Counted from the stretch's first letter, positions 643 to 64,000 are shown. The stretch: 64,000 nucleotides of DNA from Rhynchopus sp. YZ270_cl-10 (GCA_964035575.1 OZ037847.1:1488001-1552000); one strand, 5' to 3'. The notes: generated by a model not told the origin, from the sequence alone. A program made the numbers and translations.

Positions 643-1358
643 ATCCGACACCCCAAAAGAGTAACTCCCCCCCGGGTAGACTCCACCGTGTAGACAGATA
701 GATACATTCTACTTCAGAATGACATGCGAAATTATTTTTTTAAAATATGTGAACCCCGATCATTTCAAGCCCGCCTCGTCAGCCGAGGGTGACACCACAC
801 CCAAGAGAGCTGGACTATTGTTCATCAAAAATCAAAATCAAAAATAAATAAAAAATGGCCCCAGATCAGAGGCCGTTACGTGAGCGCGATACCCCGGACA
901 GTGCAGACTGTTTGTGGCTGGCAGTTTTGCACTAATCCAACGATTATCAAAATAAAATAAAATCATTGGCCTTCAGGCGACTTTTGTTGTACAGAAACCC
1001 CGTCCTCGGACAGGGTGATTCCCCCCCACAAATAAATTGACAGTGGAGCTTTGTACAATGTGGCAACTACACTACAATTTTTCTAAAAAATTTTAAAAAT
1101 GAAAGCTTGGATGCCTAGTGTAGGTTTTTTTTTTTTGTTTGCAACCCTTTCTTTCCCCAAACACGCTACCCTTCCGATGGGCCAGGGTTCACTTTTTTCT
1201 TTTGCGCCCTTCCATTTCCCCCTGCCCTATCCCCCCCAGGATTTAGCGTGAACTCTACATCACAACCCCACCCACGATAGAGTCTATGAAAAGCAGTAAA
1301 AAAAATGCCTAAAAATCTCAAACCATTTCCTTCATTTTGTCATTAAAAAAAACAGTAC

Positions 1359-2048
1359 CTACCCCCCCCCCGTGCATAAGTCCGACCCCCATGACCCGTG
1401 CATAAGTCCGATGACCCGTGTATAAGTCCGGGCAGATTTGGGATTAGGATCGGACTTATGCACAGGCCGACTTATACACCGCTTTTGTGTACTGGTCGTG
1501 GTGAAAAATTTTTTTGGGGCATTTTCCCGCTCGCGAAGCGAGCGGGGGGGAAAAATTGGGGCGTTTTTCCGCTCGCGAAGCGAGCGCAATTGTATTTTTA
1601 TTGGCGGTGTATTCACCAGGGATCATCTTCGCTTCTCGTGTCAACACGTCATCCTCACAATTCTCAAAGATGTGAACCTGTTACTGCAAAATTGGAAAAC
1701 TTTGCACCCCAAACACCCTCAACAGCCAAAAGGTGCCCCTTGTTGCTGGGAGTTGGTTCTCATGTTTGATACCTGCACAGCAAGCATTCCTCTGAGTCCA
1801 ACGCTGTTTGGCCTGCCTGCGGCGTTGTACCGAAGGTGCACGAAGACAGGGTAAATTTTGCGGTCCCTCATGTGGGTCACTCACACTGAGGTGACGTGCC
1901 ACTGCATGGGTCTGGGTATCTGGGTGCACAAACCGGTGTATAAGTCCGATACCCGTGCATAAGTCCGAAACCCCGTGTATAAGTCCGGAGGCCCTCAGCC
2001 CCCCCAAAAATCGGACTTATACGCAGACTTATGCACGGGGGGGGGTAG
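1359..2048. mobile_element. Non-autonomous TIR element (MITE)
   Basis: TIR CTAC(C)nGTGCATAAGTC / GACTTATGCAC(G)nTAG, flanked by GTAC on both sides (equally readable as a TA TSD with ends 1358/2049). Many subterminal GTGYATAAGTCCG repeats. Confidence 0.88.
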
Positions 2049-5000
2049 GTACAAAAAAAACTCTCGTTTTTTGAGATTATCAACCCCGTGGAAATGCGCC
2101 AGCATTCGTTCAAGGATACGGGAGTTTTCTCTGTGATAACAGCAAGGTGGTTTGCCCTAGGCATCAAGGGGATGTATGTGCAACGGAATGCATTCGTCTT
2201 TCACGTTTATTTTTTTTTTTATTTTTAGGGCTCGTTTTTTTTTGCATTTCAAGCGCTTCTCTTGAAATTGCATTGCACACCCGAAGACTGTCTCTTTTCA
2301 AGTTGATTTTTTTTCAAGAATGAGTGGTTGCTATTAAACGGTGTAGAGAGTTTATTTAGTCTTCACGAAATATTGATAACATTATTAAATGGACACAGTC
2401 ATAAGGGAAAGTGTTACCTTTTTTTTTTGAGCGAGGCTGTGCATTAAAGAGGGAATTTAAAAAAAAAACGAAAAAAAGCTGGGTCATAAATCGGATGATT
2501 TGTGAATAATTCTTCCATTTTGTTCCTTTTTCTTATTTTCTTTTTTTTTTTTTTTCTCCCCTGCTCACATTATTGGATAGGCAATCAAAGTTAACCTTGT
2601 GTTGCCTGTTGTGTGTGTATATTTTGCCCAACCTCGCCACAAAGAAAAACAAAAAACAAAAGAAAAAAAAAATATGTTTAAACTTATTCCCTCCCGTCTG
2701 CTCTCTTTGGACTTCCCCTTCTTACCACGTTGGGGTTTTCCGATTAATATTGAATCAATTCACTGTGGGTGTTTGTGTTTCACAGCTACCTGCCCCCCAC
2801 CACCCCCCCTGTTCTTTTTGATAACGAATGTGATCAAGGTGGCTAAGCATGAGAGGCTTAGGTTCATCTTATAAACTTTTTTTTTCTTTTTTCTTTTTCT
2901 ATTTTTCTTATGAAACTGTTCATCCATTGAACTCTCCTGAGTCTTGGATGTGCTTCGATGGTGTCTTAGAGAGTTTTAGCGATTAAAACCAAACAACAAA
3001 AAAAAAATCATAAAAAACCCATCCAAAAATCCCAAAAAAAAAAATACAACAACAACCAACAGAGGAAATGCAGATGGAGTCAAGGACGACCCCATCCTTC
3101 TATTTTTTAAAATACATCTTCAATCAGTTTAAATTAGTTGCTTCCTTTTTCATCTCTAAATCGGATTCCGATATCAGTAACCCTTCTCTTGAAAAGTCAA
3201 TTCAATGTCTGGGTCCTCCCTTTACCGCGTACATTGTCCTTCACGGTTTTTTGAGGCCCATCAGCAAGACTTCACCCCCTCTTTTTCCTTTGAACGAAGA
3301 GAAATAAAAAAACAGAGCACAAAACAAAAGTAACAAATCTTCAAAAAAAAAAAAAAAAAAAAAAAATAACCCCCCTCTCCCTTGCCACTGCTTCCCATCA
3401 CGCCTTTTCTTACCCGAAGAAAAGACGTCATTTTTTTGTGTTTCGAACGTTTCTTGTGAAAAAAAGATGCAAATTATCTTTCACTTTGTTCTATCACGGC
3501 CCCCATCCCATTTTGATCAAAATTATTTTTGGAATGACATTTTTGGGTTCACAACTCTCAGAGGATTCCTTCGGAAAAAAACAGAAAGTAGGCGTGGGGA
3601 AACCACCCACACTGGATCTGTTTTTTTTTTTTCTTTTCTGTCAACGTGCAAATTGAGAAGATAAATCATTTTTTATTCTCAAATTTATGGTGATTTTTGA
3701 CCTCCTGTAAAGGCTAAGCTGAAGCTTGGTATCATCTGACAAAAAAAATTTCTTTGTTTCTTTTTTTTTAAATAGCGAAGACTGTCTGGCAGCTGAACTC
3801 TCAACAGATTGAAAAAAAAAGGAAAAAGAAAATAAAACAAAAAAAGATGTTATCGAGTATAAGTGCAGATACGTATCAACCGTGCGACTGCAGAAGGGCT
3901 CACCATTAAGCAATAGATCACACACACCCAGCAGTCTTATCTGGGCATTATTTTTTTTAAAATTATTGTTATCGTTGGTATAACCTTTATCATGTCACAA
4001 CACACCAACAAGCCCCCCTGTAATTCCGATATTTTTTTGTATTTTTTTCCCTTCAAACTAAAAATTGGTTTCTTTGTTTCGATACTGTAATGGAGGCTCC
4101 TTAACCATTTTGACAAAAAATTAGGGAGTCTCCAACGTATCATTTTAAAACTTTAGTGTTTTTTGTTTGTTGTTTTTATTTCCACTTCCAATCATATTTT
4201 TTTTTTTTTTAAACAAGAGGTATGTGCACATGGGAGGCATATTCATCTCTCAAGTTTTCTCTCTTTTAAAAAAATATTTTTTTCGAAGAAAAATAATGAG
4301 CATTTTTTTTGACGGGGGGGTTTTTTTTTTGCTCTTCCCGCCTCATACATGTCCCCCGCATGATTTTTCTTAAACATCCACCACTCCCACCCTCTGTAGA
4401 AAGATTGCGAAGTTCAGACCAAAGGGAAAAGTTTTTTTTAAACCTTCTGTTGTGGGTAGTGCTTTCGTCCGGGGGCTGGCATCAGAAGAACCGTTACGTG
4501 GGTCAGTCGGAGGTGGCATCAATAACTACCGTTAAAATCGAATTGATGTGTGTGTTGTGTGTTATTTTCGTTTCTTTTCCAGAAAGACATACCGGGTCAC
4601 GTTCATCTCTCAAAAAATGTTCCTTTTTGTTGCTAAATCACATCATTAGGTTAAAAGCGACATTTTATTGGTATCATCTCAACTGCTATTGACTTTGCGT
4701 CTATCACGCGTATATTTTTTTCTTTTCAAATTTTGTTGTACAGAACCCATTCTTGGACAGGGTGATCGTCGATGCTTCGAAAAAAGAAAAAAAGAAAAAA
4801 ACTTGCAATTAGTTCAGAGTTGGAAGGCTTTGACTTACTCCAGTTTTTTTTCTTCTGTCGATCGTGCACCCCCTTCCCTATAGTCTGGATTCATCATGAT
4901 GCACACCATAATAATTACAAAAATGTCAGCAACTTTAAAAAAAAACAAAACAACACACAAACAAGCTCTTCCCAACCCGCTGATTTTTTTTTAAAGCTTT

Positions 5001-7040: not shown

Positions 7041-9012
7041 TATCAAAAAATAAGAAATACCCTTGATGCTAGCCATACGGTGTCTCTCAATGTGGAATAT
7101 ACCAGATAGCATTTCATTGTATCGTTGTAGCTATTGCTATGCGTGAGGGGGGAAATAAATAATAAAAAAACAGAAAACAGAAAACAAAAAAACCCCCTCT
7201 TTCTTCGGGAAGATGTGCACTTAATGCAGGGGGTGAACAAAAAAACAGCGGAACTCCTTTTATACATCAAATTATATTCACTCTGTGTTTTTTTCCCCCC
7301 ACTGTAACCTACCGAGGTAGCCGTGACACTGAACATACAGGTAGTTTTTTGGTAGCCGCGCCACTGGTACTGCCTCTTTGCTTGGGTTTGTTGTTGTGTT
7401 ACTTTGCGGGGTACCACACTGCGACTGGGCAGGGAGGGGACAGTTTCCCTTTTGCTCTTGGGTGCACAGCCCGCACACCTTCCCCCAAGGTGTGGCAGAG
7501 CAAAACCTTTTGACTCTGGGCTGACGACATGGTAACCGTGGCAGGAAGTTGCATTTTTTCCTCTTTTTTTTTTTTTTCCTTCCAACCACCTCTTGAAGGG
7601 TTGGGGCTTGTATTCATCTTTACTTTTTTTTTAAAGGTCGAAGTTATCAAAACGTTGCCCTATTTTTTAATATTTTCTCCTGTTTCTGCACTCTCAACAC
7701 ACAACGGGGAGGTTTTCCCAAACAACGTCGATATGGGAAGACGTGCACAGAAAAGTCTTTTCTTTTTTCGTTTGGAAACTCAACCACCCTACACATTCTT
7801 AAATATGCGTGTCTGTGCACGGTAAAGCACATTCACCTTTCACGTTCTCTTTTCGTTTTTCACAGATTTTCATGCGAATAAGCCCATTCTTTATTCGATC
7901 GCACTGATTGCACTAAAACCCCCTTTTTTCTTCCGATATATTTTGTGAGGATATCGTAAATTCATCGGTTTCTTCGGGAGAAAACGAGCGTCCACGTGCC
8001 CCAAAATGTATTTGGTTTTTTTTATATTTCCACGACTCCGGTAAAAACTTGATCAAAAAATTCATCCCAAACCCTTTCACTTTTAAAAAATACACCCTTT
8101 TTTGCATCGTTTCCCGGGGTTGCCTTATTCTAACTCACAGTTTAGCGTCCCCCCTTTTTTAACAAAACGAGAGTACACAACGCAAAAAATCTAACAAAAA
8201 AAACTTCACAAAAACCCAAAACACCCCCTTTTTTTTTCAAACCTCTTTTAAGAAGGAAGCTGTGTGAACTGCTTCACCCCCCTTCTCCTTGCGTTTCATG
8301 CCAACAAAACATGTTACAAAACAAAAAAAAAACAAGAGCACAAAGCAAACATAACAAAAACTTCATAAAAACCCATTCAAACACCCTTTCTCCTTCTTTT
8401 CATGATTAAGTGCGTCGTGCGTCTACTAAAGTGTTTTGCACTTCTTTTTCTCTCCCCTCCCAACTTTACTTGCGTTTTTTTTTTTTTTCTCTGCATTCTC
8501 TGCGGTGCCCGAGTCAAAACCACACACACCACTTTATTTTTATACCCCCCACTCGGAAAATCCCACAAAGGTCCAACTGTATTTTTCTGCTTTTTCTTTT
8601 TCTGAATGTCGTTATGTGAAAGGGTTATGTCTTGCGCGAAAGTGAAAATGACGATTTCATACTTTCATTTTTTTTTTTCCTTCTCCAAATTTTAATTTGT
8701 TTGGACACCGTTTGATCGCCCTGAGGCTCATTTATCGTTCAGTGGTATTCCCCACAAAACCCCCTTGAAGGCTTTCCCTCAATAAAATGGACACTTCATT
8801 GATTTATTATCAATGAAGTATTTCCTCCATTTACCCTTTTTTTTTTTGTCAGTCAGGTCCTTTAAGTGGATGCTCATCCCTCCTTTCTTGTGTTTTATTC
8901 AAATGGAAAAAAAAAATAATAAAATGTTCACGGACTTTCGTTGTTGATCTCAAACGACTTCGTAAGTACGGCGGATACGTACTCACTCCTTTGTCTCAAT
9001 ACAATGTTATTT

Positions 9013-9048: not shown

Positions 9049-9054
9049 ATTTTT

Positions 9055-18525: not shown

Positions 18526-18680
18526 TCCTTTCCCCTCAAAAAAAGTACAAAGTTTTTATTTCTTTTTGTACCTACGTCCGTAGAGGCGTTTTGCACTCTC
18601 TTTATTTTATTTTCTGCGAGAGAACAACCTTTCAGTTCTATTCGCGTTGGGGGTTGGGTTGGGACCTTTTTTTTTTTTGT

Positions 18681-18822
18681 TACGCACACTACTCTGTGTG
18701 CGGAAAGTGTCACGTCGTTCACTCACCCCCAACCGTGCTCCGCAACACCCTCACTCACCGTGGAAGCGTCAACGCATCAAACAACTACAAGAAAGGGGGG
18801 GTGAGGGAACGACAAGTGACAC
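18681..18822 (+). ncRNA. Structured family D, copy 1
   Basis: GTGTCAC/GTGACAC, GTCGTTC/GAACGAC and CTCACC/GGTGAG stems enclose the conserved GTGGAAGCG-N4-CGCATCAAAC. Confidence 0.55.
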
Positions 18823-19781
18823 TTTTAACCCATCCACTTCCCCTTCCCCTTCCCATCACCTTGTTATTAGAACGAATAATCAACACACCCCCCTTTTTTT
18901 TGCAAAATGCCAGCCTGAGTTTGCTAATTTAATAATCCTAAAAACATTTTCCCCCATTTTGCACAGTGCTTTGGTAGAAGAATTAGGTCAACACAATAAA
19001 AAAAACTCAGCGTAAGAGAAAAAAAAGAATATAATTGTCGAAACTACAAAAAAAAAAACCCCCCTCTTTCTTTTTCTCCCAAACCCCATCTCCCACCCGA
19101 CCCTCGGTTGACACGCCAGCTCTCCATCCCATCATTCCCACCCATTTTTTTTTGGTAATTCTGTTGATCCTGTTTTTCTCTTGTTCTTATTCTAATCTCG
19201 TTAGAAAAAACACCCCCCTCCCACGAATTATCCCAAGAAAAAACCCCCCCCCAAAAAAATCATTTTTTTTTTTTTTATTGAGGCAGCATTTTTTTGTAGT
19301 TTTGTTGAGAGTGTTCTCAAGGTACTAGAGTAGTCTTTGTTTCATCTCGCCAAAAAAAAAAAAAAAAGGGCCAACATTGAGTACAGACCCGAATTCTCCC
19401 ACCTGGTGGGATTACTCGGCGATTGTAGACACAACAAAAAATGGCGTTTTTCTTTAAAGATGTGTACGCACGAGAGACGTATTCATCTTTCAAATGTTCT
19501 TCTCATTGCCCCATCCACTGACAAAACCCCTCTTTCTTTTACAAATGTATGTGCCCCCCCTTTTTGAGGAACTTGCATTTTTCTCCCCCCTCCCCCCCTC
19601 TTTGTTTTTCAAGGTGACTAAACACGGAAACCTTCGAATCATCTTATTTCCTCTTTTCTTTTTCTGTTTGAGAAAATTCAGTGAACGGTGATGTGGACAG
19701 GGGGGGGGGGTAGTTAGCCATCTTTGAAAGCTGCACTACCCCATCTGGTGAGTGCATAAGAAGGGAAAAAAAAAATAACTC

Positions 19782-19841
19782 GGCCTTCGGGCAACATTGA
19801 GTACAGATCCTGCATTAGCAGGTGATTGTCGACACAACAAC
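19782..19841 (+). ncRNA. Hairpin family C, representative copy, with conserved GTACAGA internal loop
   Basis: TCGGGCAA-CATTGAGTACAGA-T-CCTGC.ATTA.GCAGG-TGA-TTGTCGA-CACAAC. Related copies near 975, 4731, 19368, 38684, 38945, 40287, 40963, 42808, 43853, 43971, 46183. Confidence 0.5.
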
Positions 19842-22800
19842 AAATAGGGGGGAAATAGCTTTCTTTTGCAGGAGGGATTTCCTCCCAGACCCACACTACC
19901 CAACCCCCCCACGGTAGACGGTACCCGTCTTTTTATTGATTTTTTTTTTTTTTTTGAAAAAAAATTTGCTGATAAGTTGGTCACATGTACCTTTACATCC
20001 TCTGAAGAAAGGTGTCTGGTCGATAGACTGTGTTATTATACTGTATTGTATTTTCTCTCGTTTCTAAAAAAAAAAAAAATCTAACAAAAAACAATCAGAG
20101 CCATCCGCCCCCTCTTCTCTCCCCTCAAGGGTTCCCCCTCTACTCCTTTGGATGGATAATTATGTTTGCCATCGCAGTTGCAAACCATAATGCTGACTTG
20201 AAAAGAACGGATGTGAGTTACATTCATCTCAAAAGGCTGCATTTTTTTTAAAAAGGTGTATGTGTGAGCCTCAGAGGGGGGCACATCCATCTTTTTTCAA
20301 ATTTTCTCTTTTTTTTTTTTTCTTTCTCTCTTCTATCCATGTGTTTCTTCTTCAGCTTGGATATTCAAACGCCACTTCCCTTCTTTGGTCCTTTTGGTGC
20401 TCTGTAACACATTTCATTCAGTTTTTCTCTCTTTTGTTAGGAGAGTGCATGTTTGTTAAAGCTACACCCTTTTTTTTTTTTTTCCAAGCGTCTTACCACC
20501 CCATGGGGACGGTAGGTCAAAAACAATCATGTACTCCCTCACGATAAAACCCCTCTGTAAAGGGCCTTTCTTTCCCCCCCCCCACGTACAAGGAACGATG
20601 CGAATTAATCCCCACCCCCGCATTTTTGAATCCTTGGACGGACGGTGAATTTTTTTTTAAAAAGAGTTGTGTCGATAATTGCGTTGTAGCTACGCTACCG
20701 AGGTAGCTAGGCGATTTGTTGACATAAAGAAGGGGTGTTGATGGTGTTAAATAATTGCTAAGGGAATGGCTGCATAAAGTTTCGTTTTATTTCCTTTACT
20801 TCCTCTTATAGGCAACTGGGCCACGGCAACGTTCGCGAAGTGCATCGTGGCTGCCACAACCATGCCATTCCTGTGGTATTGATGTAGTAACAGAGTGGTA
20901 CACCATATTTGAGTAGTCTGAGATGTACAGTTCGTTTTTTTTTTTTTTCGCACAGCAAAAAAGGGGTTGACCCCAAACCCAGATACCAACTCATATACAA
21001 AAGGCCCGCAATCCCAGGCTGTTCTGTATTGACTTAACAGGGAAAAATGGTGGTGCATGTATACACTATGTTTTTTTTTTTTAAACTCAAAAAAATAGTC
21101 GTTGTTGAAACACAACTCAGTCGTTAACACTTTTTTTTTTTTTGACTCAATGTGTCTGAGGTCGTTTTCTTTCTTCTTCTTCCATACAACCTTTCAAAAC
21201 AACCCCTACCCATGTTTTTTTTTCAGTGACTGCGTCGAGGTGTTTGTACTTTTTTTTTCTTCTTGTCAAACAAGAAAAGCAACAACAAGGAAAAGAACAC
21301 CCTCTATTATTGCTAAAACGGCAAATTGGCAGCAGGTTTTGCTAAAAAAAACATTAAAAAAAAACCAAAACAAAACAAAACAAAAAAACACACACAACAC
21401 TCTCTTCCTACCCTCTTCTTAAAATCCATTCAAAGTCCCCACTCCATTCCCCCCCTCTCTGGGGGAAAAACACACATATTATCTTTCTTTTTTAGAACGG
21501 AGTTCAAAGGACGTATAGATTAGTTGATTTTTTTTGTGAAGATGTGTGTGTCACGATGCATCTTTCCAAGTTATTTTTTCTTCCTCTTTTGAGGCGACTA
21601 CGCACCTGCTATATGCATTATTTGCTAAGGGGAAAAAAAATAGAAGTTGTTCCATTATACATTTTTGTCAGAAAATAATGTATATGAAACAACTTCTTCT
21701 TTTGAGGCGACTACGCACATTGTTCAAAACATTAAGTAATCTAATCAGACTACGCACACAGAACGTGTCCTCGTACCTTTTTCTTTCTCTTTTTCTCGCT
21801 CTCTTTTTAGTTTGGACCAAGCAGGCACCGTAAAACGCTCAGCTGCTAATCCATACACACATCCCGTCCAATCTTACACCCCTTCGCGATGTCGTATTTA
21901 CTCTGTCTTTTTAAGGTGGCTAAGCACAGAGAGGCTTAGGATTTATAAACTTTTCTTTTTTTCCCCCACCATGTTTATGAACAGTCACCCCCTCCACTCC
22001 TTCCGACCCTTTGGGTTCCATGCAATAAGCACTACACTCCCTAATCTGGGGAAGTCTTATTTAGAATCTCAAAAAAAAAAGCGGAAATAGGGTGTGTGTG
22101 GGGGGTTCAGGGTGTATTCATTCTGTGAGATTGCCGTTTGTATTGGCAATGTATTGCCAGACGAAAAAAAATGGCCTTTTTTGCACCTGAAACTGATTTA
22201 CAATTACGGGTGTATCCTCGAAGGGATGTGTCGGGGGGGTGAAGTAACATTGCACCACCCCCGAGTGTTCCGCACTGCGAGGGGCTTTCAGGAGCGTTAT
22301 CAGCATCACCTGTTGAGATGTTTCTTGTGTTATTTTATTTTATTTTATTTTATTTTTATTTGATGCTGCGCGATAACGAATGTGATCAAGCTTGACGTAA
22401 GCACAGAGAGAGCTTAGGGTCATCTTGTAAACTTTTCTTTTCTTTTTTTTTCTGTTCCTTTTTTACTGTGCAACCTACGTCCAGGTACACACCACTTCTT
22501 CCTCCCTTTTCTGTGTTCTCTATTTTGTTTCTCTCGTTGTGGGGTATTGTGTTTCTGCAGACAGCGCTCATCGCATTAAAAAAACAAAAGAGTATGTGAC
22601 CCACATAGCGGGCACATTCCATTTGTATCCATTTAATAGAAAAGAGAAAAGAAAAAAAACTTTGCGTACCTCTCTCGTACAATTGTCACAACAAAAAAAA
22701 GGGTTTCCGTCTTTGTCTCCCTTTTTTGTAAAGCGGGTTGTCTTGTTCACATACCCCCTTTTTTTAAGGTGAGCTAAGTATATGACTTAGGTTGCTCTGA

Positions 22801-28627: not shown

Positions 28628-29477
28628 ATGGGAAAAGGCAACGGACTCAGCGAGACGCCTCAGCACAGCCACCTGCTCTCCCTTGTGGTGGGGGTGGGTC
28701 TGGTGATCATGACCGCGTTGGGAATAAGAAGGTATTACACTGCCCACCTGATTTTTACCCTGCGTATAGGCGCGGAAAGGCGTGTACGGACGGTCCGTAT
28801 ATGCCTATACGGTCCTATACGCGGGGTAAAAATCAGGTGGACTGCCCATCACATCCCCCACCCCTACACAACCACCACCCTTCAGCTACCGCTCGCACCT
28901 TGCGACGGAGATGTATCTTGCAGGGTTGGATGAGATCCTTGAGATGCAGGATGAGATTTCGACACAGCTTGATATCATTGAACGCAACGCGTCTGACGCG
29001 CATGCAATTCTCAAGCAACTCAACGCTGGCGCCTTTGACGACGAAGACACCGACACTGCAGAACTCGAGCAGAAACTTCTGGCAAAACTCGACAAGCTCA
29101 AAGCCAACTTCGACAAGCAGGCAAAGGCTATCACCGACATCTCTAAGGGGTCCATCAAACGCTTCCGCAAACTCATTGAAGGCGACGACTCTAAAGACGA
29201 ACCACTGACAACCGTTGCCACGACTGGTGGAGGTGGCGGAGGAGGAGGAGACGAAAGCGGCCAGCAATGGGTCGTGAAGTGGCATAACAACGGTGTCAGC
29301 ACGTCCCCCCGCTTCCACTCCGAGGCCCAGGCCTACCGTTATTTCGTCAACGTCGGCGATTTCGCAAAGAAACTCCTTGGCTACGACGGACAACGCTGGG
29401 CCGTCATAAAAACATACGGCGGCAGGCAGTGGCTCACCCTCATGACAGACGATGGATCTTACCAATCAAGCGCATAA
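28628..29477 (+). CDS. Two-exon gene join(28628..28731,28886..29477): N-terminal TM anchor plus coiled-coil protein of unknown function
   Basis: ATG at 28628. Donor AG|GTATTA at 28732 and acceptor CTTCAG| at 28885 join the hydrophobic segment LLSLVVGVGLVIMTALGIR in frame (AG+C=Ser) to the GC-rich 28911-29477 ORF, which has a heptad-like helical region and a poly-Gly linker. Confidence 0.75.
28744..28840. mobile_element. Short YCACCTGA-ended MITE, copy 2, inside the predicted intron
   Basis: TIR CCACCTGATTTTTACCC / GGGTAAAAATCAGGTGG with direct repeat ACTGC on both sides. Confidence 0.85.
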
Positions 29478-29685
29478 TTTTTTTTAACCTTTGAGGGGAT
29501 TAGGGGAAGGGAAGGGAAGGGGGAAAATCCGCCGGGCTATTCTGTTTTTCTCTAATAGAAATACTTCTCTTTTTTGACCAAACCATTGCCCCTTTTTAAA
29601 ACTTTTCACGCAGGCCATCTTCTTCCTTGAGACTCATTTTACCCTTTTCAAAAAACCTCAAAAAAGTTCGAACCCAAACAATGTG

Positions 29686-32297: not shown

Positions 32298-32298
32298 T

Positions 32299-35799: not shown

Positions 35800-35836
35800 A
35801 GTGCCTGCGTCCCAGAGGCGTTTGCACTACCAACTT
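35800..35836 (+). ncRNA. Hairpin family G, representative copy
   Basis: AGTGC-CT-GCGTC-CCAGA-GGCGT-TT-GCACT-ACCAACTT. About 15 relatives, e.g. 10572, 12626, 18568, 21226, 23675, 25622, 27389, 45055, 53672, 63508. Confidence 0.45.
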
Positions 35837-43377: not shown

Positions 43378-43487
43378 GCCTTTTTTTTATATTATTACGA
43401 AGCTTGCTTTAAAGGAGAAATAGTATTTACCGGGTACGGTTGCCAAATCATTCCTCAAATAGGAGGATTTGTGCAATCAACGAAAAC
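43378..43487 (+). repeat. Family J, ~110 bp (second copy at about 52995-53099)
   Basis: TTACGAAGCTTGCTTTAAA..TACCGGGTACGGTYGCCAA(A)TCAT.CCTCAAATAGGAGGATTTGTGCAATCAACG shared; ends in a hairpin plus AAC. Confidence 0.7.
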
Positions 43488-43523
43488 AACTTTACTTTAC
43501 ATACCCGATCCTACTATTGTTTT

Positions 43524-43583
43524 GTGCTTTCATCCGGATGGCTGGCATCGTACGTGGGTCAGTCGGAGGTGCATTAATAACTT
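43524..43583 (+). repeat. Hairpin family I (other copies at about 4459 and 54293)
   Basis: GTGCTTTCRTCCGG..GGCTGGC-loop-GTCAGTCGGAGGT(G)GCAT.AATAAC shared, with only the loop varying in length. Confidence 0.65.
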
Positions 43584-46293
43584 CACTTTGATAGATACCT
43601 CCAATTTGTTGAATGCATAAAGGTTGAGATTCTTTTTGAGTTTAAAGTTGTGGGTACCTCACATGGTCTGATTCTGTACACCCCATCCCAATCCCAAAAA
43701 AACTGCGAGAAAACTTCTCCACGGAGAGGTGAAGTAAGAAAAGAAGGGGGGGGAAAAGAGAAGTATAGTGGAGCTCATCCTCGGGTGGCTACACTAATGC
43801 AAGCAAGGTTTTTAATGAGGAAAAGAAGGTATAATATGCTTTCTAGCCCTTAAGGCGACTTCGAGTACAAAAAAACCCACCTCTTTTTTTTGGGTGATTT
43901 TGACGATACAACAACAACAAAAAAAAAAAAGAGTTGAGGACGACTTTCCGTCAAAATCTTTGAAGTATACAGCCTTCGGGCAATATTGAGTACAGATCCT
44001 GCCTTAGCAAGGTTATTGTCGACACAGCAAAGAAGGAAAGAGAAAGAGGAAAAAAAGAAAAGAAAACAATCCACATATTATCCACACCTGCTAGCATTTT
44101 TTTTTGCGATAACGATTGTGATCAAGGTGGCTAAAGCACGAGAGGCTTAGGTCTTCTCTTTTTTTTCTTTTGTAAATCGATGTTTTTCTGTTCCTGCATT
44201 CATTGAGGTGTCGGCGCTAAAAACTTCAACCCTCTTTGTTTTTTTTGAAAAAATTGGCTCCGGTTGCAGACCCCGATGGGGGTCTTCACTATTTCCATAT
44301 TATTTGTCTTCTTTATTGCAATACGTTGGTGCACTGTATTCAAAAGACCTGCAAAACTCGTGCGATTTAAAACAAAAAAATAAGGTGAAAGGCGAATATA
44401 TCCAATTTGCCAATTCCAGCAATTTTTAAGCAGGTCTTTGAACGACAGCAACCACAGCTCTTCCAAAAAGCTCGAATTTGCACTTTCAACTTCTCTTTTT
44501 TTTTTTTTTTGTCTTGCTGTGTCTCTCAGGCACATGTAATATTTCAAAACCCCCTTTTTTTTTTGTTTATTTTCTCTTCTTCGCCCCTGTGGACGCCATG
44601 CTGTCAAATATTCTATTTATTCTTGTTTATTTTCTTTTCTTTTCGAAATGCGTTTTCTTTTCTTTGTTGGAAAATCTGGAACACAACGTTGATATGGCAA
44701 TTTAAGCTGTATGGATCAGATTGAAAAAAAAAGGGGGACATGCCTGTTCGCTCATTAGAGCGAACTATTGTCACGCTAATAAAATGCAGAATTTTTCTTC
44801 CCATCCCATCACCCCTCCCCCACTCCCGAGGCAAAAAATACCGCCTCATTTGCACAGCATTAGTAACACTCTCAAAAAAAAAAAATACAATTTCTGCGAT
44901 ATCAAAATCAAAAAAGGGTTCCCTTTTTTATTTTTTGCCAACAACGTTTCTTTGTTGTCACTCAATATTCCCACATGATTCCTTCCCCACCTCTCCCACC
45001 CCTTCCCACACCCTCTTCTACATATTCGTTCATTTCCTCCCCCGAACCGTCTCCAGTGCCTGTATCTGACGTCCGTGAAGCGCATACAGTATTTCAACTT
45101 CTCTTTTCTGTGCATGACAGGCACATCCCATCTTTCAAGTTTTTGCTTCCTTTTGATTATTTTTTTTTTGATCGGTTCCCTGTTGCCGCTGTGGCAGCAG
45201 TTTAAAAACCAAAAACAAAATTCTTTCGATCGATTCGACACTGCCCGTTGCGACTGCACTATGCCATTACTCTATTTATATCATCCGTTACATTTTCTTT
45301 TTGTGCATTTCTGACCTAAACTCCCCCCCTTTTCCCGCACGAAAAAAAAAAAAAAAAAAAAACAGTATTTTGCGATTACCAGCAATCAATGTCTTGGGGT
45401 CTGAACCCCCATTGTCCTCGATTTGCTGGATTTCCCCCATTTTTTTAGGTGCCTAGCCAATGGGGCTTAAGGTGCATCTTATTTTTTTTTTGTTGTTAAA
45501 TCTGCCCAAAAACTAAAACAACGTCGTGCAGTAAATGGCTTTTTACTGCTCTATATTTTGTGCATATTTTATGTTTTCTTTTTGTCTTGATAAGCGCTTA
45601 TGCGCTAGAGAACACGTCATTCTATTTGTTTCCATTTCCTATTTTTTTCCCACTTTATATGTGTCCTTTTTGATGATACATTCGTCTTACAATACATCAA
45701 GCCCCCTCTCTCCCTCTGCGTTCATATCATTTCCTTCTCTCAGTGCCGCTCGCGAAAAATCTGAAAAATACTGCGTAAATCGCCCAAAGAAAAATAAAAA
45801 ATGTGAAAGTTCCTCTGCCCTTGGAAACCCCCTGCAAAAAAAAAAAAAAAAAAAAAAAAAAAATGCAAAAGTGCAGGACTGAACAAGGAGCGTCGGGGGG
45901 AAAATCTTGCGAGTAAATAAACAAAACAACAAAAAAAAAAAAATACCAAGGCGGACCCAAGTAAGAAAATGTCAGGCGCCGGGCGCTTATCGTATTTTTA
46001 CTTTATTCCACCCTAAAGGAGTGGAGGGAAAAACTGTACATACTAAAACATGAGATTTAAATAAAAAAAATCCCTAACTAAACGGGGGAAAAAAATGCGT
46101 TCTAGGCAAAATAGAAAAGCCAAACCAAAAAAAAGAGAAAAAAAACAAAAACAAAAACAAAACAAGTATTCTAACCCCCTTTCGGGTGTCATTCAGTACA
46201 GAGCCCACTTCTTGGTTGGGTGATTTTGTCGATAAATAATAATTTTTTAAAATCGCGTTCCGATTCTGAAATTTATTATTTTCATTTTCCGGA

Positions 46294-48633: not shown

Positions 48634-50381
48634 CTTTTAAAAAAAGGTGTCGAAACTACAAAAGAAAATGAAATGATATGGTCGCGCTGTAGGGGTGATA
48701 CCATCCTAGGAGTCAGAAAACAAATTTTTTCAAAAATGCCCCACTTTCTTAGCACCCTCTATACCTTCTTTTGTAAAAAAAGGAATGTATACGAAATAAA
48801 AAATGCCCTATTTCCATTTAATACAACATTCTTAGCCATATGAATGCTGAAACGACTGACGGCGCATGCCGTGCTAACTTTGTTTACTTTTCTTTTGTTT
48901 CTGTTTCGTTATAATCAGGGTTCATTTTACAAATACCCAAGATCCATCAGAGTAGCTTTCTTAGTCTCGAATTTTGTTATCTCATAAAAATACATTTTCT
49001 ATGCGAAAGTAGATTTAAATCGTATCTCTGCATGTCGTCGTATCTTATTCTTTTATCTTTTTTTTAAATTATTTCTGTCTTTTCCACGACATAGTTTACA
49101 ATGTTAACTTATTTTTTGTATTTGCTGTTTCTCTGTAGATAAATGCGAACGAAATGCATATTCATCGTTTTATAATTTCTCTTGTTCTTCTATTATTTCG
49201 ATGCATGGCTCTCGCCGGGGGGTGATCGGGTTTTAAATCACCCAAAAAAAAAAAAATATTAAAAAAAAGAGGGGTGATCCGGGTTTCGGATCACCCCTCT
49301 AAAAAAAAAAAAAAAAAAAATCCCAGGGTTGAACCCAGGGAAGTTCCTAAGTGGGACCGAGAACATGAAATTCTGGATTTTAGTTTTTTTTTCCTTTTTT
49401 TTTTTTCCTTTTTTCCTTAGGGGGCTTTCTTGTGGTTTCTGGTGGGTTTCACTGTAGGTGACACACCACCAGTGTGGTGAAATGGTCGAAACTCTCAAAA
49501 GCAAGAGTTTTCAGGGGGCAAGAAAAAAAAAATTGACACCAAAATCCTGCACCATCCAGGGCTGTACCCCCAATTTTTTTTTGCCTGCGGCGCCATTTTT
49601 CATTTTTTGCTCTGCAAAAAAGGGTTCGTTGGAAGCTAGATTTTTACACCGTACCCAAAAATTTTTGCCTGCGGCGCCATTTATATTATTTTTTGCTCCG
49701 CAAAAAGAGAAGTGCAAACGCCTCACCATTCATCGGCGGAAGCACTGGCTCCACGGGTTATCGAACCCCAGAGAGCACTTCATTGGCATGCACACGGTTG
49801 CCACGAGGGAGCGTATGCCGGTACAAAATCACTGCCCCATCCAAATAATATTCCCAACGTCTTTGGGGATCCCCTTGCATTTTGCAGCCAAAATGCAACT
49901 AGACCAAAGCTGCAAAAAGTTCCGCGCGCGTGTAGCGCGCCCGGGTTTGGGACCCCTTTTTGAATTTCGAGGGGCGGTTAAAGTGGCCCAGAATCACAGT
50001 TCTGACACTCATTTAGCATTGTGAGCAACGCACTAGTGGTCGTAACCAAAATTTATATCAATCAAGAACTTGTCCATTTTCTCGAAATGACCCCACTACA
50101 GTGAGGGTAGAGCTCGGAAAGCCCGAAAAAGGGCAAAAAACCCCACCCAAAAAAAAGGAAAAAAACGGGAACATAAATCCAGAATTTTGCTGTTTTTTCC
50201 GAGAACAAGGGGCAACCCTGGTTGAACCACGGGAGTACCATGGGGAACTGGGTTGCTGACCGCATCATCCAGACTGTACCTCAATTTTTTTTTGCCTGCG
50301 GCGCCATTTTTCCTTTTTTGCTCCGCAAAAAAGGTTTCGTTGAGTGAGTATGCGATGTAAAAGCTAGCTTTTTACACCGTA

Positions 50382-51747: not shown

Positions 51748-52427
51748 TACCTTATTTTTTTTTTTCGCCTGCGGCGCCATTTTGTATTATTTTTTTTTGC
51801 TCCGCAAAAAAAGAGCACATACATACAGTTCCCTATGTTCCCAATGTCCCTGGTCAGCAGTGCTGAAAAATTTTTTGGGCATAAAAACAAGCTGACCCCA
51901 AACGAGGGGAGAAAGCGCCTCGCCTCCCTGCACTGGCAGGGAGTCGCGCGCGCGAAGCGCGCGCGCGACCGCTTTTACGGGGGGAAAGCTCGGGGACCCC
52001 AAATCACCCCCCATTTTGGCCAAAAGGGGTGATTGGCGAGAGCCCTGTTTCGATGACGTAAAAAAAAAAAAAAAAAAAGTGGAGCTTTTGCACAGGTGTT
52101 AACTACACTATTCTAACAATCTATCAAAAAAAAAAAAGAAAAAAATATGCCACTTTCCTGACCCGATACGTGCTTCTCAATATCTATCTCAAACCCCACA
52201 ACCCCTCCCCAGCCAGCCTGCCACCCTCTCCAGCCATCTTCCGGACAAAAAAAAAAGCAAAAAAGAGAGAAAAAACTATGTCACTATTAATGACGCACCC
52301 TTTGAGCTATTGAAAAAGCAAATTATCTTGCATAAAAAAAAAATAGACAATTTTCACTTGCCCTGCATTTTTCAGCGAAAAAAAAGCGGCCTATTCGTTC
52401 GCATATGATTTACGGTGAACTTTTATT

Positions 52428-52465
52428 AGATGTGCGTGCACAAGAGGCACATTCATCTTTCAAAG
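52428..52465 (+). ncRNA. Hairpin family F, representative copy
   Basis: AGATG-TGCGTGC-ACAAGAG-GCACATT-CATCT-TTCAAAG. About 20 relatives, e.g. 2168, 4215, 10133, 14190, 18068, 19456, 24631, 31479, 36718, 53849, 61814. Confidence 0.4.
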
Positions 52466-57122: not shown

Positions 57123-60100
57123 ATGAAGCGTCGGTTTCAAGCATCGGGAGAAGGGTGCGAGGGTGGCCAGGAGTTGTGTGTTGCGGAGGAGCGTGGTCGG
57201 GTGCAGATTCTGCGATATGAGTCGAGGCAACGTCGCGCGACAGCTGCGGCGTGTGCAGTAGAAGAGGAGGCATTCAACCAGCCGTCCCCTATCAGCAGCC
57301 CCGCGTCCCTTCTCGATAGCTCTGTTCTGCTGCGGACCTGTAGAGAAAATCCGGACGATCCACACACATTTGAATCTGACCCAGACTCTTCTCTTGCCCT
57401 CAGCAACACTGCGTGCTTTGATCTAGATGAGGGTTATGAATCAGACAGCGACCTCCAAATGCCTTTCCCGATGCCCCTGGAGCGTGCCTCAAGCTTTGAT
57501 ATTTCAAGCGATTTTGCGTCGGATAGACAACGCATGGAAGGTACCGTTACCTCGTTTGGGTCTGTCCCGTCGACGCCGGACCAATCGTTTAATCATGTAG
57601 AGGATGTGTTTGCGATGTGTGGTTTTCAGGATGACAGCTGTGCGTATGAGAGGGAGACGTTGCAGGTCATGAATGGGGTGCATCCGTTGTCTGTGCAGGT
57701 GTCGGTGTGTGAGGTGTTGCAGACGGCGACGCTGCCGTGGGTGTCGGGGCGTGGCAGGACGTATAGGGAGGAGGGTTTGGATGGGGACGATGTCAGGTCG
57801 TTGCAGGTTCCGTTGCCGGTATGGTCGAGGTTGTATCCGCATCAGAAGGAAGGGGTGATGTGGTTGTGGAAGCAGGCATGTGAAGCAGCAACGGAGCGTC
57901 CAGCAGGCGGCATTCTTGGTGACGAAATGGGGCTCGGCAAAACCATCCAGATGCTCACCTTCCTGAGCGCGGCGCTCCACTGCGGATACGGCCGCTCCGC
58001 ACTCATTGTCGTGCCCCTCTCGGTCATCGCAAGCTGGCAGTCCCACCAAGAAACATGGTGTCCCCGCCTCCGCCTCAGAACGCTCACCGCAGAGACACCC
58101 ATATCGCTCCGATCCTGCATCATTGAAGGCTTTATGGATCCGCAAAGCCCTTCCGTGCTGCTGACCACATATGGCATGGTGCAAAGTATGTACAAAAGAA
58201 GGGACGAATGGTTGGGCCGTGTGAAGTGGGACTACGTGGTGCTCGATGAGGGGCACTCCATCAAGAACCCTGCCTCGCAGACGGCGCGTGCAGTGGGTGC
58301 GCTGCAGAGCGAGGTGCGTTTCGTCATCACCGGCACGCCAATGCAGAACTCCCTTGACGAGCTCTGGGCGCTGTTCTCCTTCATTGACCCGCGCATCCTC
58401 GCGGTCACTGCGGCTGCCTTCAAACGCACCTACACAGACCCCATCAAGAAGGGCATGCTTAAGGGTTCCTCCGAAGCCGCCAAGGAAGCATCTGACGTGC
58501 AAAGCGAAGCGCTCCACAGTGTCATCATGCCGTACATGCTGCAGCGTCAGAAGGAGGACATCCCTGGGTTGGGTCTCAGCAAGAAGATCGATGTGGTGGT
58601 GTGGTGTGGAATGACGGACCTGCAGAAGCGTGTCTACGAAGGCTACCTGGAGGGCACCGATGTGCGTGAGTGCATTCTCAAGAAGGAGACTGCAGGTGCG
58701 GTGTGCAAACTCACAAACCTGCGGAAGCTGTGTAACCACCTTTGGCTGCAGTACTCACAGGATGAACTCAACAACCGACTCTTAGTGCCCACCAGCGACA
58801 ACGAGCAGGGCACGATCGCTGGCGACTGCTGCAAGATGGAAGTGCTAATGAAGATCTACGAACGTGCTCGGGAGACTGGAGAGCGTGTGCTCGTCTTCTC
58901 TCAGAGCGTGAAGATGCTCAACATCATCACCGTCGTCCTGCATGAATGCTTCCCCGACATCCAGCTTCTCCGCCTCGATGGGTCCACCAAGGCGAAGGAC
59001 CGTCAGGAGCGTGTGGACCGCTTCAACACCGACGCCAGCATCGACATGATGCTTCTTACCACTGGTGTGGGTGGTACGGGGCTTACCCTCACCGGAGCCT
59101 CGCAGGTCGTCATCTTTGACCCAGACTGGAACCCTGCGAAGGACTCCCAGGCGATAGGCCGAGCACACCGCATTGGGCAGACACGCCAGGTGGTGGTCTA
59201 CCGCCTCATGACGTGCGGTGGTGTGGAGGAGTTCACCTACCGACAAGAGATCTTCAAGGAGTGCGTCGAGCGCAAGACGACACGCACCCACATGGATCTG
59301 GATATGCACCGCTACTTCAACCGTGTGGAGCTCCATTCGATGTTCAAATTTGAGCCCGACGCGGCACGGACGTTGGACCAGCTCAACACCTTGCAGGGTG
59401 TGCAGCAGTACCCGGAGGAGACGGTGCGGGTGTTCACGGAGTTGAACGATCTGGAGAACGTGCAGGGCATCACTAACCACGACGCTGTGTTCTGCCGCCG
59501 TGAGAGCGACAGCGACGTGCAGGACGACCTAGACGCAACGCTACCTGCCGCACACACCACCACATCCGTCTCATCATCGCAGAGCCCTGCCCCCAAGCGC
59601 TCTGCACTGTCCGACATCACCCCAAACATGACGCCCGCAGCCGCACCCGAGACACTCAAGGTCACAGACACCTCCGTCGAACGCTCCTCCACCCCTGCCG
59701 CAACGTTCCCCCCCGCCCTCCCACCCCTCCCCAACTGCAGCCCCGACAGCACAGGGCTCAACCGTCGTGCCCCCTCCTACTCCTCCTGCGGCGAGATGCC
59801 ACGCGACAAGGTATGCCACACCCCCATCCGCCCACCACATCTTCCCAACAGGACGACGAAGGCATGCTCCGCGCCGCAGAGGAGGCCCTGTCTCGGATGA
59901 GCTCCCCCTCCCCTTCATGCTTTCCCCTTGGGTATGCTTTCCCTTCCCTTCTAATCCATCCTTCATCTCTCTACAGTCTCCCTCCACGCCACGCATCGAA
60001 GTCTCCCGGCATGCGTTCCGTCGAAAGCAAATGCTCGAACTGCGACTACAGCCAATTCCCTTTCTGCCCTGTGACTGGCCGTGCTCATAAGAAATGCCTT

Positions 60101-61407
60101 TTGGACAGCTCTGAGCGAAGCGACTCTGTGAGCAGCAGGCTTACCCCTGGGGGGAGCCCTCCTGTGCACCCACCTAGCATGGAGGCTGTGTGCGTGCAGA
60201 CGGACGACGAGACGTCGGTTGACCTGCTGGCACCAAAGGTCGACCATCGTGAGGGTAGAGCACTGTCCTTTAGCTCGCAGTCCACCGCCCCTGCGGCACC
60301 CAGCGCGCCACTGAAGACACAAAGCAGAAGCACGGTGAGCGTAGGGAGCGCACAACGCGAGCTTTCCTTTGGCCTGCCACGCACATCCTCTGCCAGCCAC
60401 GACATCGCAGGGCCGCCAGACGCGCCCTACAAATACAGAGAGGCACGCAGCACCATCAGTGTCGGCAGCGCACAACGCGATTTGTTCTTCCACGACGACC
60501 AACGCTTCAGCTGCGAACACACGACTTCCGCCAGCCCGATGCACGCTGGGCTTGACTACGAGGTGCTCAGCACACACAGCGTCACGCTCCGCGAGGTCTC
60601 CTTCTCCTCAGCACCGTACGCACCCTGCAAATACAGAGAAACGACCAGCACTGTCAGTGCGGTGGGCCTTCCACAACGCGAGCTTTCCTTTGGGATGAGC
60701 CGGAGTGCCTCTGGGAGCAGCAGCACAACCGTTGCGGGGGTCGAGGTGCGCCGCTTTGGCAGCGCACCGAGAGAGCTGTCGATGGCATCATCTAGCTTGG
60801 TGGGGACACCTTGCATGACACAGGCGGTGTATGGGTTGGGCGACGCGCGGTGCGAGAGCAAGGAGAGCACATCACCTCCGCTGCAGGTTTTGTTGAACGC
60901 ACCGGAGCGGCCTTTGCGGGATTCTACGGAGGCATTAGGCTGCAACAGCGGTGGCGCATCGGGGAGTGCACGGAGGGAACTCTCCTTTGGCGCAGTGAGC
61001 CACGGCTGCGAGAGCCTGCACACCTGCCGCAACCACCACAGCCCCCTCTCCTGGCGCAACGAAACACCCCAAGGTGCCTGCACCCTACAGTGCGGTGCAC
61101 CAGGCGCACCATGCCGGGGCTCGGTAGGGTCCGCCTTCGTCAGCCCCGTCACCAACACAAACGGCATCAGACGTCGTGCACGTGACACACGTTGTAGTGA
61201 CAGCGAAACCTCCGACAGAGTCTCCTCCTGGGGCCCTTCTTGTTACTACGATGACGTAGACTTTCATATGGACAGACGAAGTGTCTCAAATTCAACAGAA
61301 GATAGTCTTCGAATGTATGTATTTTTTTGAGGGTTTTTTTAGAAATTGTCATTTTTTTCTTTTTCAGCCGACACTCTGTCAATATCTACACCCCGCCGCC
61401 GTTGTGA
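57123..61407 (+). CDS. SNF2-family helicase/translocase, ERCC6L(PICH)/ERCC6-like; proposed join(57123..59810,59852..59931,59977..61314,61368..61407)
   Basis: Motifs GGILGDEMGLGKTIQ, WDYVVLDEGH, TGTPMQN, VLVFSQ, GGTGLTLTGA..VVIFDPDWNP..QAIGRAHRIGQ. A 41-nt GTATG..CAG intron (59811-59851) joins the two overlapping ORFs in frame. The family call is strong; the subfamily call is less certain. Confidence 0.88.
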
Positions 61408-63131: not shown

Positions 63132-63134
63132 GCG

Positions 63135-63240
63135 TACGCTACTTTTTGTGAGCGGAAAGTGTCACGTCGTTCACTCACCTATGTGGAAGCGGAAACGCAT
63201 CAAACTACACAAAGGGGATGAGGGAACGATAAATGACTAC
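63135..63240 (+). ncRNA. Structured family D, copy 3, minimal form
   Basis: Same stems, variable arm deleted, inner hairpin GCG-GAAA-CGC. Confidence 0.55.
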
Positions 63241-64000
63241 TTTTTAAATGGAACGTAAGGAACTGTACATTTTTTGCTTTTTCTTCAAGATGACTCAGCG
63301 AAGTGAGACTTCGTAGCCCATCTGACACACCGTCCTCTTTGGTAGCTATGTGTGTACGAGAAACACTTTCATAATTCTAGTTTTTTTAAAATGCTTTCAT
63401 CTGGGGCTTTTGTTGTACACAAAGTGGCCTTGTTACGGTGGGGCAAGGTTACCGTGTATGTACGTCAGTCAAAAGGCGTCTGTATCAATACCTGCACTTT
63501 CTTTTTGAGTGTCTGCGTCCCGGCGTTTGCACTATCAGCTTCACTTTTTGAGTGGTTCGCATAGTTGTTACGAGCGATGCTCGGGGATGGACCCTGAGCA
63601 CTGCAGCTCAACACAAAAAAAAAAAACAAAACGACGCTGGTGTTTCGTTGTGTGTGGTGTAGTGCTTTCCCATACATTATGCACACCTTCGAAGTGCTTT
63701 CGATGCAACCAAAGCGCTGTTCTTTAGTTTGTAAAGAAAACCATTCCCGCTTTTGTTTCAGGTGACTAAGCTTACGAAGCTTACGTTCTCTCTCTCTTTT
63801 TTTTTTTGTTTAGATTTTCACTCCAAAGTTGAGGGTCTTTTATTCCCTTCTGTCGAATTGACTTTGGTATCTGTACTGGGGGGTTTTTTTAAACGGTGAT
63901 CAAGCATAGAGGCTGGTTCATCTGAACAGGTTTTTTTTTTGAAATACCAGAATTTATTATAGACTTTTCGCTCTCCCAACAAAACCCCGGACCGAGAGAC

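Follow-up and report, generated by a model that had tools for sequence, protein, structure and literature searches.

Co-oriented short interspersed repeats, many with predicted hairpin folds, in the spacers of a diplonemid gene cluster

Introduction

Diplonemids are among the most abundant marine eukaryotes. The subject of this study is a dense set of short, co-oriented interspersed repeats in Rhynchopus sp. YZ270_cl-10, located in a stretch of 64,000 nt (GCA_964035575.1, OZ037847.1:1488001-1552000) that we call the window and in which all positions are counted from the first nucleotide. The closest described elements are the short interspersed degenerated retroposons (SIDERs), which are reported to be sense-biased in gene clusters, by about 4:1 only, and antisense-enriched between poly(A) and splice sites (PMC2689281). 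Stringent long interspersed nuclear elements (LINEs) are described as recognizing a 3' stem-loop (PMC4176376). For the diplonemid Diplonema papillatum, unidirectional clusters of 5-120 genes with intergenic gaps above 10 kb and long 3' untranslated regions (UTRs) were reported, together with retroelement open reading frames (ORFs) numbering about 2,500 and scattered motifs present in up to about 6,000 copies (PMC10161547). The H/ACA-like guide RNAs of trypanosomatids are given as 57-91 nt long, with an AGA box and 5-11 nt on the upstream side of the pocket (PMC2613932).

A first-pass annotation of the window, made from the sequence alone, had described strand-locked hairpin elements and had likened them to guide RNAs, splicing signals and SIDERs. 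The elements are a real feature: they are sense-oriented short interspersed repeats as found in Euglenozoa, unusual in size, density and strictness of orientation. Among the earlier comparisons, that with SIDERs, as co-oriented interspersed repeats of a polycistronic euglenozoan genome, fits best. The searched literature on diplonemids contained no account of hairpin repeat families locked to the sense strand; Additional file 1 of PMC10161547 (UTRs, repeats), which lay outside the search, may bear on this, and seven supplementary files of the same paper make no mention of snoRNA, hairpin or stem-loop.

Results

Thirteen families (Table 1), with elements of 35-160 nt, were seeded from self-BLAST comparisons and by eye, and nhmmer profiles were iterated with both strands searched. 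After removal of overlaps and of mirror matches of the palindromic family E, the profile hidden Markov models (HMMs) gave 83 matches at E<0.01, 82 on the + strand and one on the - strand, and 110 against 5 at E<1, while five block-wise dinucleotide shuffles gave none at E<0.01 and 2-7 each at E<1. A covariance model (CM) of family A found 41 matches, all of them on the + strand, and none in a negative control of 379 kb from 20 of at least 80 unrelated eukaryote loci. The combined models count 98 elements on the + and one on the - strand, in agreement with the about 100 elements described earlier; the accompanying statement that every copy lies on the + strand holds for all except one true copy of family B. 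Independently of the seeds, self-BLAST of the masked spacers returned 52 same-strand and no opposite-strand pairs at E<0.01, and 91 against 2 at E<1, after omission of the tandem array described below and of the transposon-like or palindromic blocks 1350-2060, 9050-9700, 46280-46570, 49450-52050 and 62700-63000. The same spacers hold an internal contrast to the strand-locked families, as 9227-9492 matches 49549-50382 and 51762-51877 in opposite orientation. The antisense B copy adjoins block 49549-49716, which matches 9280-9456 in opposite orientation, and was likely carried in with this inverted block. Transposon-like ends in both orientations were seen at 9227-9492, 49549-49716, 50214-50382 and 51746-51877.

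No element lies in the 7,308 nt of coding sequence (CDS), where about 15 would be expected from the spacer density of 99 elements in 46,785 nt. This density amounts to one element per approximately 470 nt and to 12.6% of the spacer bases. The positions look random, with 14 gaps under 60 nt against 14.3 expected and a coefficient of variation (CV) of the spacing of 0.79, and the elements are not concentrated just upstream of genes. Exclusion from CDS and co-orientation with genes were observed in one gene cluster. Exact-pattern scans for further copies returned none in metagenome contigs, viral contigs or genome contigs.

Four of ten listed genomic runs, all in the form of contigs, were compared with 28500-43900. 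In run X1, single-copy contigs have a depth of 80-103, whereas the summed depth reaches 1.16 million at 35140 and 0.26 million at 36011 on two copies of family D, 1.15 million at 43553 on family G and about 79,000 on family F; summed depth is no copy number, and the two D sites differ fourfold. If the four near-identical D copies found in 64 kb are extrapolated to the 112 Mb of contigs, about 7,000 copies result, which is of similar order to the read depth. Young families are thus covered approximately 10^3-10^4 times deeper than single-copy DNA and are therefore genome-wide interspersed repeats. Contigs from other loci join the elements in many orders (D-A, A-G, A-A, A-D, A-F), and 14 of the 15 joints shown, out of 699 in all, are same-strand, the exception involving a strandless perfect palindrome. 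Co-orientation therefore reaches beyond the window, while its link to genes can be drawn in the window only. The near-identical D copies have sharp ends, A-runs and unrelated flanks, with no homology beyond the A-runs, and family ages extend from copies of 97-100% identity to heavily decayed ones.

Families A, A2 and B follow a common plan of an AG-first lower stem, a bulge or small internal loop of 1-3 nt, an upper stem, a variable loop often ending in GAG, a tail and a U-rich tract. In family A the lower stem has 7-8 bp, followed by a 2-nt 3' bulge, an upper stem of 6 bp and a variable loop, and the short tail is of AUAAAC type. A2 shares this lower stem, and its upper stem differs in sequence yet still pairs. 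Family B consists of a pyrimidine tract, AG, a 5-bp stem, a 2x2 internal loop, a second 5-bp stem with two G-U pairs and a UAUCAAC-type tail. The flanks of A and B are 70-80% pyrimidine upstream and 69-78% downstream (background 55%), and those of C and D are A-rich. Family C has conserved arms around a hypervariable apical hairpin and ends in ACAAC or (CAA)n and an A-run; its apical segments have a median identity of 39%, and for 4 of 12 the hairpin is significant relative to shuffles at p<=0.01 (one further copy missed the anchors). Family D has short inverted ends and family E is a long inverted repeat, in conflict with the earlier statement that no element shows terminal inverted repeats (TIRs). 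Most elements had also been said to be followed by ACA/ATA/TCA-A(A)C. Directly after the stem, however, ACA, ATA or AGA occurs in 14 of 41 A-type matches, and by another measure [C/T/A]AAC stands near the end of 35 of 82 copies, compared with 29% of windows drawn at random; the claim was overstated.

Because G/U-rich strands fold better anyway, raw energies, which favour the sense strand in 54 of the 83 copies, were replaced by shuffle-normalised values. By this measure copies of A, A2, B and G fold better in sense (mean z -1.57) than in antisense (-0.65), with lower values in sense for 33 of 48 copies (Wilcoxon p=3e-4, an optimistic value as the copies are related and not independent), and background windows are symmetric (102 of 200). 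The 35 copies of the remaining families show no asymmetry as a group (sense better in 14 of 35). Taken singly, families D and L, along with A, A2 and B, fold better on the sense strand, with G-U pairs, although for D only the z score favours the + strand and the raw energy is lower on the - strand. Family C has no sense-strand advantage, in E the two strands fold equally well (z about -4.6 and -4.9), no significant structure was found for H, I, J and K, and C and G are likewise weak hairpins. A z below -2 on the sense strand was found for 28 of 83 copies and for 15 of 200 background windows. The earlier description of each element as a stem-loop with G-U pairs working on the + strand is thus borne out by the sense asymmetry of A, A2, B and G but not by the other copies as a group. 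The strand asymmetry of raw folding is -3.15 kcal/mol with RNA parameters and -0.44 kcal/mol with DNA parameters.

Two-sided covariation within A, A2 and B, proposed as a check in the first-pass annotation, was not significant against shuffles (for A, 193-324 of 500 shuffles were as high, depending on the measure), and RNAalifold found no consensus structure in a MAFFT alignment of C. Individual copies look decayed rather than compensated, as 75-90% of the alignment cells pair. Consensus G-U pairs underwent 11 changes, all to Watson-Crick pairs and none to a broken pair, and Watson-Crick pairs changed to G-U in 53 cases and to A-C in 33 (p=0.04). Substitutions relative to one fixed reference affect 12% of stem and 20% of loop positions in A and 16% and 29% in A2; these counts, as those of pair changes, treat related copies as independent.

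High-copy dispersal, sharp ends and an age series, by which short interspersed nuclear elements (SINEs) and other non-autonomous retroposons are recognized, were all found. Miniature inverted-repeat transposable elements (MITEs), with TIRs, strand-symmetric folding and both orientations, do not describe the families, because A, A2 and B fold strand-specifically and all families are co-oriented; only E has the symmetric fold. In an Rfam search of the window, 12 matches had E<=1, but none of them reached the gathering score or lay on one of the families. Resemblances by eye to ribozymes, SECIS elements, K-turns and the histone stem-loop were discarded, there being no Rfam match.

The window contains five long, intronless and uninterrupted ORFs, all on the + strand (Table 1), and not four genes as counted before. 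ORF 4 has 62% identity in its core to a D. papillatum protein and 64-73% to three further proteins, against approximately 40% or less over the full length to all other listed proteins, which are from non-diplonemids, and in a quick tree of 14 hand-picked proteins it groups with these four proteins with a support of 100. It serves as the taxonomic marker of the window, by which the DNA is assigned to the nucleus of a diplonemid. A metagenome scan with the diplonemid SNF2 alignment found at least 80 loci of 31-41% identity, none diplonemid-like among the matches listed. The open frame of ORF 5 (59504-61330) extends upstream so that it covers the final 400 nt of the SNF2 gene, and a start at 60011 gives no overlap. 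For the SLBP-domain ORF 3, one homologue was found (66% over 46% of the region searched), and Rfam has no histone stem-loop match in the window; kinetoplastids polyadenylate their histone mRNAs. The gaps of 24-29 kb in the window, which, repeats aside, show no other exon-like GC islands, are probably spacers of one polycistronic unit and look intergenic, like the gaps above 10 kb in D. papillatum clusters.

Several other repeats occupy these spacers. A tandem array at 14724-18059 comprises about 42 copies of a 77/83-nt unit with 95% matches and, by eye, two perfect small hairpins per unit. At 50377-51749, two inverted repeats of 399 and 292 nt, nested and nearly perfect (100% complementary), are built from palindromic units of 21-33 nt and represent either a young foldback element or an assembly artefact. 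A 97-nt palindrome at 28744-28840, which ends 70 nt upstream of ORF 1 and is related to 38460-38652, has a summed depth of 39,000-107,000 in run X1, suggesting hundreds of copies. Near 31885 (bin 31584-32097) the depth in that run is about 68,000 on a sequence that is single in the window, pointing to a further repeat family outside the 13. Two MITE-like elements are bounded by TIRs, one at 5943-6427 with 22-nt arms that encloses a family H copy and one at 1363-2045 with 20-nt arms, and short palindromic or tandem minisatellite patches occur at 547-642, 46294-46552 and 62725-62946.

Table 1. Positions of the repeat families and ORFs in the window.
Feature	Type copy or extent	Strand	Other copies (start, unless a range is given)	Remarks
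Family A	37349..37390	+	2835, 3711, 6764, 10512, 10755, 11102, 11523, 18266, 19610, 21912, 22378, 24483, 33957, 35223, 35651, 35854, 37611, 39394, 44123, 46802, 53411, 55231, 63758, 63893	25 HMM matches at E<0.01, all +; fold z -4.85 sense, -2.56 antisense
Family A2	52424..52463	+	4214, 10124, 19454, 20196, 24628, 31475, 36715, 53847, 61812	10 HMM matches at E<0.01, all +; two also recovered by family A CM
Family B	35800..35834	+	12625, 18567, 21225, 23675, 23898, 25622, 27389, 37495, 63508	10 + and 1 - matches at E<0.01; z -2.97 sense, -0.34 antisense
Family B, antisense copy	49705..49746	-		E=5e-4; sole confident antisense copy; adjoins transposon-like end
Family C	19785..19842	+	983, 4732, 13992, 19375, 38683, 40305, 40975, 42814, 43984, 46190	11 matches at E<0.01, all +
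Family D	35124..35190	+	6980, 14058, 35958 (97-100% identical); 1039, 26323, 52075 (older)	7 matches, all +; young 67-nt element between A-runs
Family E	18678..18827	+	23126, 63130	3 co-oriented copies; 115-160 nt, long inverted repeat (MITE-like fold), small 5' hairpin
Family F	43379..43489	+	52995 (89% identity)	about 110 nt; long 3' hairpin (z -3.43), then UCAAC and A-run
Family G	43535..43585	+	4469, 54303	3 matches, all +; very high copy number elsewhere in the genome
Family H		+	6074, 18463	all + at E<0.01
Family I		+	13239, 31445	all + at E<0.01
Family J		+	25945, 48573	all + at E<0.01
Family K		+	21709, 26988, 54005	all + at E<0.01
Family L	7289..7330	+	20676, 33594	all + at E<0.01
ORF 1	28911..29477	+		188 aa; no Pfam family at cut-off
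ORF 2	29686..31089	+		467 aa; no Pfam family
ORF 3	32299..33537	+		SLBP RNA-binding domain (PF15247, E=2.4e-22), Q-rich tail
ORF 4	57123..59900	+		ERCC6L/CHR24-like SNF2 helicase, 925 aa
ORF 5	60011..61330	+		439 aa; no Pfam family

Discussion

High copy number, sharp ends, the age series, tails, RNA-type consensus hairpins and the decay of single copies are most simply accounted for by mini-retroposons with a recognized 3' stem-loop. The reading that we favour tentatively, and that may well be correct while falling somewhat short of probable, is that the elements are selfish, non-autonomous mini-retroposons, similar to SIDERs or SINEs, copied from polycistronic RNA. Target-primed reverse transcription forms the background of this proposal. 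With the whole coding strand transcribed, every sense copy would be a possible template, and the 3' stem-loop would be recognized by a LINE-type reverse transcriptase, with the short tail used for priming. Stems would stay intact along the copying lineage, while single copies would decay and loops would drift. The orientation lock might arise in either of two ways, by priming of insertion on the transcribed strand and thus coupled to transcription, or by loss of antisense copies, for which thousands of sense copies would be pairing partners. The partner enzyme, the RNA intermediate, the insertion signature and both locking steps are elements that we infer. By analogy with SIDERs, a regulatory function may have been acquired by some copies.

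Several observations weigh against such an origin. A partner LINE, a reverse transcriptase or a shared 3' end was not found within the window, and no tRNA-derived head was detected (ARAGORN 0 genes; no tRNA, 5S or 7SL Rfam match at E<=1). In 7 of 8 families tested, the flanks of a copy match each other no longer than swapped flanks do, and only the test for family B was marginal (p=0.036); target-site duplications (TSDs) would be hidden in homopolymer-rich, low-complexity flanks, and the earlier remark that none is obvious agrees with this result. Elements of this kind are far shorter than known SINEs or SIDERs. In family B the stems have no advantage over the loops (18% versus 18% substitutions), and the excess of changes to G-U pairs over those to A-C is modest and could stem from mutation bias. 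The main difficulty for the mechanism is the strand lock. Pyrimidine tracts favour the + strand by 378 to 166, but A-runs of at least 8 nt number 119 on the + and 181 on the - strand, and although A-runs favour the - strand, all 18 C and D copies lie on the + strand. Tract availability thus predicts at most about 70:30 for the U-tailed families and the wrong direction for the A-tailed ones, and therefore cannot explain the lock. Whatever the model, insertion must be tied to transcription or antisense copies must be removed. A simple antisense purge is in turn weakened by the persistence of TIR-type elements in both orientations in the same spacers.

Next to the origin as mini-retroposons, a possible though rather unlikely explanation is that the elements are host-selected cis-acting hairpins, with selection on each copy, that allow the 10-28 kb of U/A-rich spacer RNA to be handled in polycistronic transcripts, as protein-binding sites that conceal cryptic trans-splice acceptors, halt a 5'-3' exonuclease or tag the RNA for decay. 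The near-absolute sense lock and the high density would be expected in this case, as would the shared two-stem shape of A, A2 and B with their differing upper-stem sequences and the C apical stems, which are unrelated in sequence yet often perfectly paired. In family A, the lower-stem pairs hold in at least 92% of the copies at four central positions, and in D. papillatum the unusually long 3' UTRs were proposed as regulatory platforms (PMC10161547). Acceptor-like AGs inside elements are indeed buried, with a mean unpaired probability of 0.145 against 0.36 outside (p=3e-4). However, of 115 acceptor-like AGs only 18 fall within elements, which does not exceed the proportion for AGs in general (372 of 2,070), and AGs outside elements are not more buried on the + than on the - strand (p=0.14). 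The other 97 of the 115 acceptor-like AGs lie outside elements, and a general masking of all cryptic acceptors was not supported. The lack of significant covariation, the nearly random spacing and the absence of a concentration just upstream of genes do not suit selection on each copy either, and TAYCAA, a complement of the splice site in the spliced leader, shows no enrichment on either strand (36 versus 33). Moreover, benefit alone would leave neutral antisense copies in place.

Both ideas may be combined. It is conceivable, but in our estimate unlikely, that in diplonemids with very long spacers approximately 10^5 sense-only hairpin modules have spread genome-wide as transcription-coupled mini-retroposons and are kept by the host to steer the processing of polycistronic RNA. 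The modules would hide AGs behind pyrimidine tracts and protect or mark spacer RNA, and, if this is true, a sense-only module library would add a hitherto undescribed level to the control of gene expression in Euglenozoa.

Orientation-preserving copying at the DNA level, by ectopic gene conversion, templated insertion on co-oriented copies or HUH-type single-strand copying, would give the elements no role as RNA and appears improbable. It would explain co-orientation without selection, and it fits the failure to detect TSDs, the mosaic joints of all kinds, the recurrent C-then-D pairs (983/1039, 13992/14058) and the 5' extensions common to a subset of A copies. The perfect apical palindromes of C fold alike on either strand, as template switching would give, and D. 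papillatum is reported to encode Helitron-like ORFs (PMC10161547). On the other hand, identical D copies share no flank homology except A-runs, elements are not clustered beyond chance, and the consensus keeps G-U pairs and bulges, which template switching would tend to perfect. The much larger strand asymmetry with RNA than with DNA folding parameters argues in the same direction.

Still less credible is the idea that the hairpins of 35-45 nt are short non-canonical introns or introners, or else serve UTRs and spacers as genuine sites of trans-splicing or recursive splicing. Introns of hemistasiid diplonemids are described as mostly non-canonical, with paired ends and a median length of 37 nt in A. 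motanka (PMC12621601), a fixed sense orientation is inherent in introns, and A reads (Y)n-AG|GT and B (Y)n-CAG. At least 80% pyrimidines precede the AG in 6 of 16 copies of A and 5 of 7 AG-bearing copies of B, against 6% of spacer AGs. However, the CDS is free of elements and none of the five ORFs is interrupted. The AG lies paired within the stem and, in A2, B and D, is not followed by GT, and no spliced-leader remnant was found within the window. Branch-point-like motifs are not enriched on the + strand (YTRAY 282 versus 288, TACTAAC 1 versus 0). From the earlier proposal of hairpin, branch point and pyrimidine modules in long introns or UTRs, the pyrimidine tract and the stem-buried AG at the start of A and B thus remain, whereas branch points are strand-neutral, AG|GT occurs in A only and the spacers look intergenic.

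We consider it least probable that the elements are genes for amplified single-hairpin H/ACA-like or scaRNA-like RNAs processed from the polycistronic transcript, as the first-pass annotation had suggested. The ACA or AUA after the hairpin in A-type matches, and the GAG at the loop ends, which we take to resemble a CAB box, are compatible with such genes. A Psiscan-like geometry test (AGA/ACA box placed 0-3 nt behind stem I, fixed distances to pocket and stem II, no rRNA target) was passed with AGA by 6 of 82 elements and 23 of 300 random spacer windows, and with any ANA by 34 of 82 and 115 of 300. As the geometry is no better than in random spacer, the snoRNA reading is not supported. The permissive ANA geometry fits D (7 of 7, near-identical copies) and C (7 of 11), the only families in the size range (about 55-70 nt), for which a small-RNA role is possible, whereas A, A2 and B are too short at 35-45 nt and have internal loops of 0-3 nt and no pocket. 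Thousands of copies per family by read depth, decayed stems and the lack of any Rfam snoRNA match at gathering score likewise do not suit guide RNA genes.

A coding-strand lock of approximately 98:1 requires either transcription-coupled insertion or strong selection against antisense copies, and either would be surprising in view of the much weaker bias of SIDERs. The families are practical markers of the direction of transcription and would be tractable in the transformable relative P. papillatum if counterparts exist there. If the elements are merely selfish, they still represent a new repeat class, of more modest weight.

The SIRE repeat of Trypanosoma cruzi is a short repeat oriented with transcription and located near pyrimidine tracts, and it can supply a trans-splice acceptor; it is about 430 nt long, forms a single family and is tied to VIPER. 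Its likeness to the elements described here is one of description and not of sequence. A stem-loop is also part of the Ur element of Caenorhabditis elegans. This element similarly combines a short motif with U-rich RNA in polycistronic spacers but is single and located about 50 nt upstream of the acceptor (PMC7668243), whereas the repeats of Rhynchopus are scattered; an Ur-like reading was not supported, and the analogous motif is strand-neutral. Hemistasiid introns are alike in length (about 37-90 nt), in their paired ends and in organism group, but they are described as interrupting coding genes and having G/C-rich ends, whereas our elements avoid CDS and form homologous families (PMC12621601). 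The AGA-box guides of trypanosomatids and Euglena share the single hairpin, the polycistronic co-orientation and an occasional ANA, and differ in size, pocket, AGA box and copy number (PMC2613932). The tails of stringent LINEs and SINEs (UnaL2, ZfL2-1/2) likewise combine a short 3' stem-loop with a short tail, and RNA structure is needed there for copying, but the loop, described as the specific determinant in those elements, is the most variable part here (PMC4176376). Stringent-type SINEs are not known to be strand-locked, and in our families no partner LINE, small-RNA-derived head or TSD was found. SIDERs resemble the elements in being intergenic and sense-biased within a directional gene cluster, but they are reported as several hundred nt long (with a consensus extending beyond position 545), derived from the ingi clade and marked by 79-nt signatures (PMC2689281), whereas the elements of the window, most of them shorter than this signature, belong to many unrelated families and recur far more densely, with an almost exclusive sense orientation.

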